From assembly GCA_002742885.1 (NCBI GenBank), contig PDOO01000034.1, positions 6,326 to 70,325 on the forward strand: a stretch of 64,000 nt of DNA, read 5' to 3'. The number at the start of each line of letters is the position of its first letter. Position 1 is the stretch's first letter. Shown here in pieces: positions 12,200-12,419 of this stretch. Origin of the DNA: Candidatus Cloacimonadota bacterium. Its GTDB lineage: Bacteria > Cloacimonadota > Cloacimonadia > Cloacimonadales > GCA-2742885. The translations under genes and the position numbers were made by a program. Below the pieces are notes generated by a model. That model was not told the origin of the DNA, made no database searches, and saw nothing but the letters and a program-made list of their open reading frames with translations.

Positions 12200-12419
12200 C
12201 CCCCAAAGTGTTTCCTTCCGCCACCACTATCTGCATAAAATTTATTTGTTCATTAATTTTGAGTCAAATTTTAAGTATTTTCCCAGGACGTTATGACAAC
12301 AAAATTTTATTTAATTCACCTCTTTAAGATAATGTTTTCGGATACGGTAATCCCTAATTTCAGTCGAAATTTTTCCAAAATTTCGACTGAGTTAATCTGA
12401 AAATTCAACAAATAAAATA
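12200..12419 (-). pseudogene. Ghost copy of the dsbD-like 3' end / tolC junction (tolC relic with about 950 nt internal deletion)
   Basis: 12391-12419 matches 7578-7606 at 27 of 29 nt. 12295-12388 is collinear with tolC 6529-6622 and includes exact runs of 23 nt and 31 nt (12323-12353 = 6558-6588). The copy reads EIRDYRIRKHYLKEVN*, whereas intact TolC reads EITDYRIRKHYLKQAELNK. Similarity from 12200 to 12294 is weaker. Confidence 0.75.

Follow-up and report, generated by a model that had tools for sequence, protein, structure and literature searches.

The question raised by this locus is what lies in the 507 nt between an orphan propeller gene and two small peptide genes, and how sequence belonging to a DsbD-like gene and to tolC came to stand there. 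The window, i.e. the whole stretch of DNA that was analysed (64,000 nt), comes from a genome bin of Candidatus Cloacimonadota, for which the source record gives protein names including CSB55_07260, CSB55_07290 and CSB55_07295. We consider it quite likely that the intergenic stretch is the non-coding remnant of a duplicate segment with DsbD-like gene, spacer and tolC, and that it is one of two scars which bracket a truncated ABC exporter gene and the propeller gene prop3. Compared with an earlier note on the same DNA, the analysis adds the second scar at 15032-15116, a palindrome which abuts a junction, and support from an independent assembly. The feature is ordinary wear of a genome and not a new system, and a functional reading of it has met with mostly negative results.

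The locus and the remnant in front of the peptide genes

Every gene of the locus is on the minus strand. From low to high coordinates it contains:

1-2037, minus strand: second RND pump gene (AcrB-type, about 30% identical to the first pump), downstream of the adaptor gene and running off the start of the window
2048-3124, minus strand: RND adaptor gene
3202-6246, minus strand: AcrB-type pump gene
6249-7481, minus strand: tolC (Pfam OEP, E 1e-27, residues 224-402)
7584-8957, minus strand: gene for a DsbD-like membrane thiol-oxidoreductase, whose homologues carry the names thioredoxin or CcdA in their source records
8957-10021, minus strand: prop2, a DUF5128 six-bladed propeller
10018-10536, minus strand: gene for a small Trx-like protein
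10533-11582, minus strand: prop1
11621-11836, minus strand: pep2, signal peptide and Cys-rich C-terminus, immediately downstream of the scar
11853-12065, minus strand: pep1, signal peptide and Cys-rich C-terminus, immediately downstream of the scar
12066-12572: intergenic region of 507 nt which houses the scar
12573-13529, minus strand: prop3, orphan putative beta-propeller lipoprotein gene between both scars
13529-15052, minus strand: ABC exporter gene, 5'-truncated

The efflux part of the cluster thus has two pumps. pep1 and pep2 share, besides the signal peptide, a C-terminal Y-x-C-D-C ... C-x-C motif, and neither of them has a match in Pfam or NCBIfam; a Pfam search with the DsbD-like product gave zero matches. 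The G+C content is 21-30% over the DsbD-like gene, the Trx-like gene and the peptide region (7500-12600), against 35-40% in tolC, the pumps and the remaining window. The drop starts sharply at the boundary between the DsbD-like gene and tolC, and could mean that the module has a different origin.

When 12017-12572 was compared with the remaining window by BLASTN, two matches were obtained, both same-strand and collinear: 12390-12423 with 7577-7611 at 32 of 35 positions (91%, E 4e-7), and 12252-12381 with 6489-6616 at 82% over 131 columns (E 2e-30). Both are significant. They define the following pieces:

12390-12423, minus strand: remnant c, the final 28 nt of the DsbD-like gene with its stop (TAG changed to CAG) and 7 nt of the downstream spacer
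7577-7611, minus strand: source of remnant c, made up of the 3'-terminal part of the intact DsbD-like gene and the first bases of the spacer
12295-12390, minus strand: remnant d, an internal tolC fragment (codons about 286-318) with exact runs of 23 and 31 nt
6489-6625, minus strand: source of remnant d inside intact tolC, within the second OEP repeat
12424-12572: spacer of 149 nt between prop3 and remnant c, resembling nothing detectable within the window

The earlier note had described most of this correctly. An exact check of 12391-12419 against 7578-7606 gave the 27 identical nucleotides out of 29 and the TAG to CAG change stated there. The collinear tolC segment contains the two exact runs as described, one of 23 nt (12295-12317 = 6529-6551) and one of 31 nt (12323-12353 = 6558-6588). 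The translations were right as well, the copy reading EIRDYRIRKHYLKEVN followed by a stop and intact TolC reading EITDYRIRKHYLKQAELNK.

Remnant d can no longer code for a TolC protein. It is without a start codon, has suffered a 1-nt deletion, runs into a premature TAA after ...KEVN, and retains about 32 of the 410 tolC codons. Residues 289-310 of TolC still match it in tblastn (E 4e-5), so that it combines significant similarity to an intact OEP-family gene with a destroyed reading frame, the two properties of a pseudogene fragment. No minus-strand open reading frame of at least 40 aa is present within 12126-12572, and the smaller frames on either strand (a 37-aa frame at 12316-12429 and the plus-strand frames) were rejected for having no ribosome-binding site or other support.

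The limits of the remnant can be set rather closely. The robust part of remnant d (12295-12390) corresponds to 6529-6625, and the tolC register is kept up to 12390, with 22 of 31 positions identical for 12360-12390 against 6595-6625. Because the in-register similarity reaches that far, the source interval missing between the two remnants is 6626-7576, about 950 nt (the earlier note had estimated about 955), which amounts to 95 nt of spacer and the first 285 or so tolC codons. At the lower end a decayed extension down to about 12252 falls inside the BLAST match but is non-significant by itself. The weaker tolC similarity which had been thought to continue to about 12200 did not hold up: for 12200-12294 alone 176 of 2000 shuffles score equally well (p about 0.09), and 12017-12251 matches the 3' end of tolC (6249-6488) no better than shuffles do. 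At the other end no similarity to the DsbD-like gene was detected above 12423, and no further remnants were found in 12017-12251, 12424-12572 or 15117-15440. That a DsbD-like gene originally came directly after prop3, as had been proposed, is not shown by the scar, since 149 nt of unrelated spacer lie between the two.

Of the two copies the one in tolC is native and codes for part of the OEP domain, so that it is the intergenic copy which is derived. The ungapped part contains 10 differences, of which 7 are at codon positions 1 or 2 and 7 are changes from G/C to A/T, a spectrum expected if the changes arose in an unconstrained, intergenic copy. The mismatches are clustered (P about 2e-4), the 31- and 23-nt exact runs being set amid patches of 65-75% identity. 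Nothing obvious accounts for the exact runs in remnant d. Neutral decay alone was rejected as the origin of the remnant in view of this clustering and of the palindrome described below.

At the decayed lower edge of remnant d there is a TTGACT (12262-12267) with TAAATT 17 nt downstream, matching 9 of the 12 positions of the sigma-70 consensus; tolC has TGTCTC at the corresponding place. The pair could be a promoter for pep1 created by the scar, going by the consensus match only.

The second scar and the truncated ABC gene

A comparison of the window with itself yields only one further short repeat, 15032-15116 with 11566-11649, at 83% over 86 columns (E 6e-16) and with an exact run of 31 nt. 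This repeat is again collinear with its source and involves the ABC exporter gene:

15032-15116, minus strand: remnant a, the last 9 or so pep2 codons, the stop (TAG changed to CAG), a 38-nt spacer, a ribosome-binding site and the first 17 nt of prop1
11566-11649, minus strand: source of remnant a, the junction between the end of pep2 and the start of prop1
13529-15052, minus strand: ABC exporter gene lacking about 65 N-terminal residues (the first transmembrane helix) and fused to remnant a

In the direction of transcription, with primes marking the sources, the order is thus remnant a, truncated ABC gene, prop3, 149-nt spacer, remnant c, remnant d, pep1, pep2, a', prop1, Trx-like gene, prop2, DsbD-like gene (c') and tolC (d'). 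The presence of a second collinear scar strengthens the view that a second copy of the cluster formerly existed. In both scars the copied stop has changed from TAG to CAG (12397-12399, and approximately 15087-15089), a T-to-C change which goes against the AT bias of the genome and which may be a coincidence.

The ABC protein matches the Pfam profile ABC_membrane only from profile position 50, and the closest homologue, which comes from Cloacimonadota and is 574 aa long, aligns by its residues 70-566 with residues 6-500 of the ABC protein. Since homology begins at residue 70 of the homologue and at position 50 of the profile, the first transmembrane helix is missing. The point of truncation coincides exactly with the end of remnant a. 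Remnant a forms the present 5' end of the truncated gene, whose ribosome-binding site and start region it would provide, having probably been co-opted for this. The best-spaced start after the copied ribosome-binding site, a TTG of the prop1 type at 15048, opens a frame of 12 codons only. The 31-nt exact run of remnant a spans the ribosome-binding site and the start, and selection can explain its preservation.

The ages suggested by the two kinds of sequence do not agree. Whereas the remnants have diverged by 9-27%, the 507 codons of the truncated ABC frame are intact, and in simulations such a frame would almost never survive 5% neutral divergence. Hence either selection still acts on the ABC gene and on prop3, or the divergence did not build up in place.

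The 3' end of the ABC gene (13549-13588) resembles 7769-7806 in the DsbD-like gene over 40 nt (82%, E 0.003), in frame (KSNIFREINYNFY against KVIFQEHNFNFY) and collinear with the scars. It was considered as a further remnant and judged to be a chance match, the tail of the ABC protein being the usual C-terminus of its family.

The closest full-length ABC homologue (40% identity) is encoded in another Cloacimonadota genome (GCA_042572585.1, JBHPBX010000004.1, 21-4887). There a radical SAM gene precedes it by about 650 nt, a LytTR two-component system adjoins it, and it is not part of a propeller/efflux-type cluster. This suggests that the ABC gene came originally from a different kind of peptide cluster.

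The palindrome and the rival readings

The part of remnant d which borders on remnant c has an unusual structure, the single feature of remnants c and d that is not random:

12360-12390: perfect 14-bp inverted repeat with a 3-nt loop, TCAGTCGAAATTTT TCC AAAATTTCGACTGA, built of tolC-derived sequence

The right arm stops exactly at the c/d deletion junction. As RNA the palindrome would fold into a hairpin of -16.2 kcal/mol (z -6.2), the values for the tolC counterpart being -10.4 kcal/mol and z -1.7. It is the strongest perfect hairpin of the 64 kb and one of only two perfect hairpins of at least 11 bp in the window; in simulated sequence about 0.03 hairpins of at least 14 bp are expected per window. 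The other one, at 59692-59728, is also a perfect 14-bp hairpin (GAAAAGATTTTTTT ... AAAAAAATCTTTTC) with a 9-nt loop and is of low complexity.

Pairing is 14/14 in the palindrome and 8/14 in tolC 6595-6625, the step from imperfect to perfect which a template switch would produce. All 9 differences from tolC create or preserve pairs, one G-C pair having become A-T by a double change, and in simulations with 9 random substitutions none of 2,000,000 trials reached 14/14. The conversion of a quasi-palindrome to a perfect palindrome by template switching is a documented mutational mechanism (PMC7202029). With this precedent, and with the right arm ending at the junction, a mutational origin is the simplest reading: the palindrome is probably a by-product of a strand or template switch at the quasi-palindrome which already existed in tolC, made during the rearrangement. 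A template switch is not fully sufficient, in that a single switch explains one arm and both arms differ from present-day tolC, the left one by 4 changes and the right one by 5; after one switch, four earlier point changes within 14 nt are still required.

The palindrome as a selected element is less likely than the palindrome as a mutational by-product. Several known kinds of element were considered for it. A Rho-independent terminator was rejected: only 4 of the 14 pairs of the stem are G-C, no T-run follows, and the prop3 stop is 183 nt away. Terminator-like sites are absent from 11500-12700, leaving prop3 without a canonical terminator, and canonical ones (GC-rich hairpin and T-run) occur elsewhere in the window 0-20 nt from stop codons. 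No known RNA family fits the hairpin, a search of 11500-12700 against Rfam with E values up to 1 having given no match. A mobile repeat of the MITE or REP type was rejected as well, the sequence having two copies only and no terminal repeats, with one copy being in-frame tolC coding sequence. Within the window the palindrome itself has no other copy, and a scan of reference genomes (a collection without the source genome bin) yielded a few exact matches, all in unrelated sequences of Actinomycetaceae and Fructobacillus.

The rival which survives best is co-option of the remnant as a regulator of the peptide operon. It supposes that the hairpin is a processing, stability or attenuation signal in a transcript from prop3 to pep1, or that the palindrome is an operator, and that the exact 23- and 31-nt runs have been kept by selection, possibly since the same factor recognizes tolC, so that peptide production would be coupled to the exporter. 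The nine differences in 12360-12390 which without exception make or keep base pairs, the gain in hairpin z score over tolC and the clustering of the mismatches all agree with this, as does the position, 183 nt after the stop of an unterminated prop3 and about 300 nt ahead of the pep1 start; the exact run over the functional ribosome-binding site and start in remnant a offers an analogy. On the other hand, the exact coincidence of the palindrome's end with the deletion junction is accounted for by mutation but not by selection. The T-run is lacking, although the genome does use canonical terminators; Rfam gave no match, no second copy of the palindrome occurs in the window and no meaningful one in the reference genomes, and a regulator gene nearby is not evident. 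We therefore regard regulation of the peptide operon by the remnant as unlikely. The more specific proposal of a cis-regulatory module, made up of the perfect 31-bp palindrome/hairpin and the two exact blocks upstream of the peptide operon, in which one factor or RNA may co-regulate tolC, is a long shot. If it were true, a fragment of a pseudogene would have turned into a regulatory element linking peptide production with the outer-membrane exporter. Taken together, co-option has a small probability.

The exact runs could also stem from recent short-tract gene conversion, by which intact tolC (and the start of prop1) would have overwritten parts of old, decayed remnants of an ancient duplication. 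The patchy identity, with flanks of 65-75% and cores of 100%, and the left flank whose similarity is no longer significant are what one would expect of this. The perfect 23- and 31-nt tracts are, however, split by a diverged patch of 5 nt, homology as short as this is a poor substrate for conversion, and the intact truncated ABC frame argues against great age unless the gene is still selected. Conversion is thus very doubtful.

The last rival is an assembly artefact, either a chimeric join via a shared k-mer or a mobile repeat present at both places. It owes its interest to the longest exact runs of the two scars (6558-6588/12323-12353 and 11566-11596/15032-15062), both of which are 31 nt long, a common k-mer size of assemblers; in the 64 kb only two 31-mers are repeated, one per scar. 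That the run length equals a k-mer size is probably a coincidence, since homology extends on both sides of the 31-mers. The Logan contigs (k = 31) of run SRR6011893 are 100% identical to the window and cover 26033-15033, 15061-13492 and 11595-6559, with 12290-12430 lying outside these, in sequence which is unique on both sides of its 31-mer. Four of the contig ends (15033, 15061, 11595 and 6559) overlap the 31-mers of the scars by exactly k-1. A contig was predicted from the model, starting at 15061 and with a partial ABC product beginning IRSLFEIF, and it was found in SRR6011893; the junction between the prop1 start and the ABC gene is consequently present, inside one contig, in an independent assembly. 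A second path through the assembly graph was rejected because only the path of the window keeps tolC intact across 6558-6588. As judged from the sequences the scars are not a mis-assembly, since the four contig ends fall exactly on the two repeated 31-mers. The copies are moreover diverged, with indels, and the 31-mers are set in longer imperfect homology, unlike the product of a chimeric join; together with the in-frame OEP-domain coding sequence of the tolC copy, this makes an artefact highly improbable.

It may be added that position 13492, the last one of contig SRR6011893_259809, is within the 5' end of prop3, and that no repeat of the window accounts for this contig end. Strain polymorphism, a drop in coverage or a repeat elsewhere in the metagenome could be the reason, and the end explains why prop3 is absent from the record in the SRR6011893 assembly.

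Proposed history of the rearrangement and known systems

The reading of the stretch as a remnant of a second DsbD-like/tolC copy leaves the question of the events behind it. The remnants are collinear with their sources at three different offsets (3466, 4813 and 5765 nt), and the truncated ABC gene and prop3, which lie between the scars, have no counterpart in the intact copy. A single tandem duplication was rejected for these unequal offsets and for an ABC-prop3 interior unrelated to prop1-Trx-prop2-DsbD; only the head-to-tail orientation agrees with it. Two junctions are head-to-tail in the same orientation, remnant a with the ABC gene at 15032 (prop1 start to ABC interior) and remnant d with the pep1 leader at about 12252-12295, and their topology is the signature of joins made by tandem duplication.

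The history that we propose begins with two nested duplications around pep1-pep2. The implied units would extend from the ABC interior as far as the prop1 start, and from the pep1 leader as far as about codon 331 of tolC, and from the topology of the junctions we infer that pep1-pep2 lay inside both. Three deletions would then have collapsed the extra copies, one ahead of remnant a, one reaching from the spacer as far as the end of the DsbD-like gene, and one of 950 nt between c and d, so that the c/d junction would be an internal deletion; remnants of 34, 96 and 85 nt would have stayed behind. Two duplications and three deletions reproduce the present gene order at a cost of about five events. 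This would be the most economical classical history and not a unique one, the order and number of the events being read back from sequence. Fewer events would be enough if replication had switched templates and made templated insertions. It is possible that selection for the dosage of the peptide genes drove the duplications.

What the earlier note had called a duplication scar is therefore to be understood as a dead copy of the junction between the DsbD-like end and tolC, with an internal deletion and a head-to-tail lower end, and not as part of a simple tandem repeat. The wider claims drawn from it fared less well. That the module expands by tandem duplication is not shown by the scar, in view of the three unequal offsets and of an ABC gene and prop3 which have no counterpart. 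The number of propellers cannot be tied to the scar through a duplicated unit either: prop1 shares 24% identity with prop2, BLAST does not match prop3 to either of them, and with at most 24% identity against 82-91% at the nucleotide level in the scar, the propeller paralogy is far older than the scar. The physical link to tolC had been thought to have lasted through at least two rounds, but the scar copies the same junction and is hence not an independent instance.

Relatives give the same picture of the tolC link. A related genome with the scar or with the un-rearranged state was not found in protein look-ups, a metagenome scan or a reference-genome scan. Exact-protein look-ups returned contigs of SRR6011893 only, the sole match to prop3 in a database search was prop3 itself, and the best homologue of the DsbD-like protein is 39% identical. 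The metagenome scan found family members only, at 24-38% identity and none with the other genes of the cluster. The same type of cluster was found elsewhere in distant loci only (33-39% identity). In one (L002, 226-7070, and L003) the order is DsbD-like gene, RND adaptor, pump and propeller, and in the other (L004, 144-3904) it is a 251-aa protein, propeller, Trx and DsbD-like gene; tolC adjoins the DsbD-like gene in neither L002 nor L004. The closest relatives (39%) have RND adaptor and pump genes after the DsbD-like gene, in the place which tolC occupies here. The link to RND efflux recurs and the tolC adjacency does not.

The value of these observations lies mainly in annotation and evolution. 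A cluster of peptide, propeller, thiol-oxidoreductase and efflux genes has been rearranged around its peptide genes, and the neighbouring ABC exporter gene is not native but a 5'-truncated fusion. It would therefore be a mistake to interpret the ABC gene together with the three propellers as a single designed module. The palindrome at the deletion junction is a tidy natural case of clustered pair-forming substitutions and opens no new question.

Several known systems resemble parts of this locus. With Rho-independent terminators and intercistronic stabilizing hairpins it shares a stable stem-loop, intergenic and between an upstream gene and an operon; unlike the terminators, it has an AT-rich stem and no U-tract, at its distance of 183 nt from the stop.

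Replication-based rearrangements with templated insertions (FoSTeS/MMBIR) are described mainly in eukaryotes, and we know of no demonstration of such a mechanism for the present lineage. The likeness consists in the presence, at junctions with 0-1 nt of microhomology, of several short copies of neighbouring sequence which keep its order and orientation; the difference is that the copies here are 9-27% diverged and not near-identical.

Amplification through illegitimate joins is, according to PMC9997567, well documented experimentally in bacteria. The remnants of a duplication or amplification followed by deletion have head-to-tail joins with little or no homology, collapsed copies and short leftovers beside intact genes, and all of these are seen here. 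The present locus differs in retaining pieces of 34-96 nt only, at unequal offsets, and in having an unrelated truncated ABC gene and prop3 in place of duplicated genes, and unlike such remnants its history is not directly readable.

The quasi-palindrome mutations of the Ripley model, studied in E. coli thyA and lacZ reporters (PMC7202029), have an imperfect parent repeat (8/14 in our case), a perfect derived copy and clustered substitutions in common with the palindrome. A single switch in that model changes one arm, whereas here both arms differ from the present parent and the palindrome coincides with the endpoint of a 950-nt deletion.
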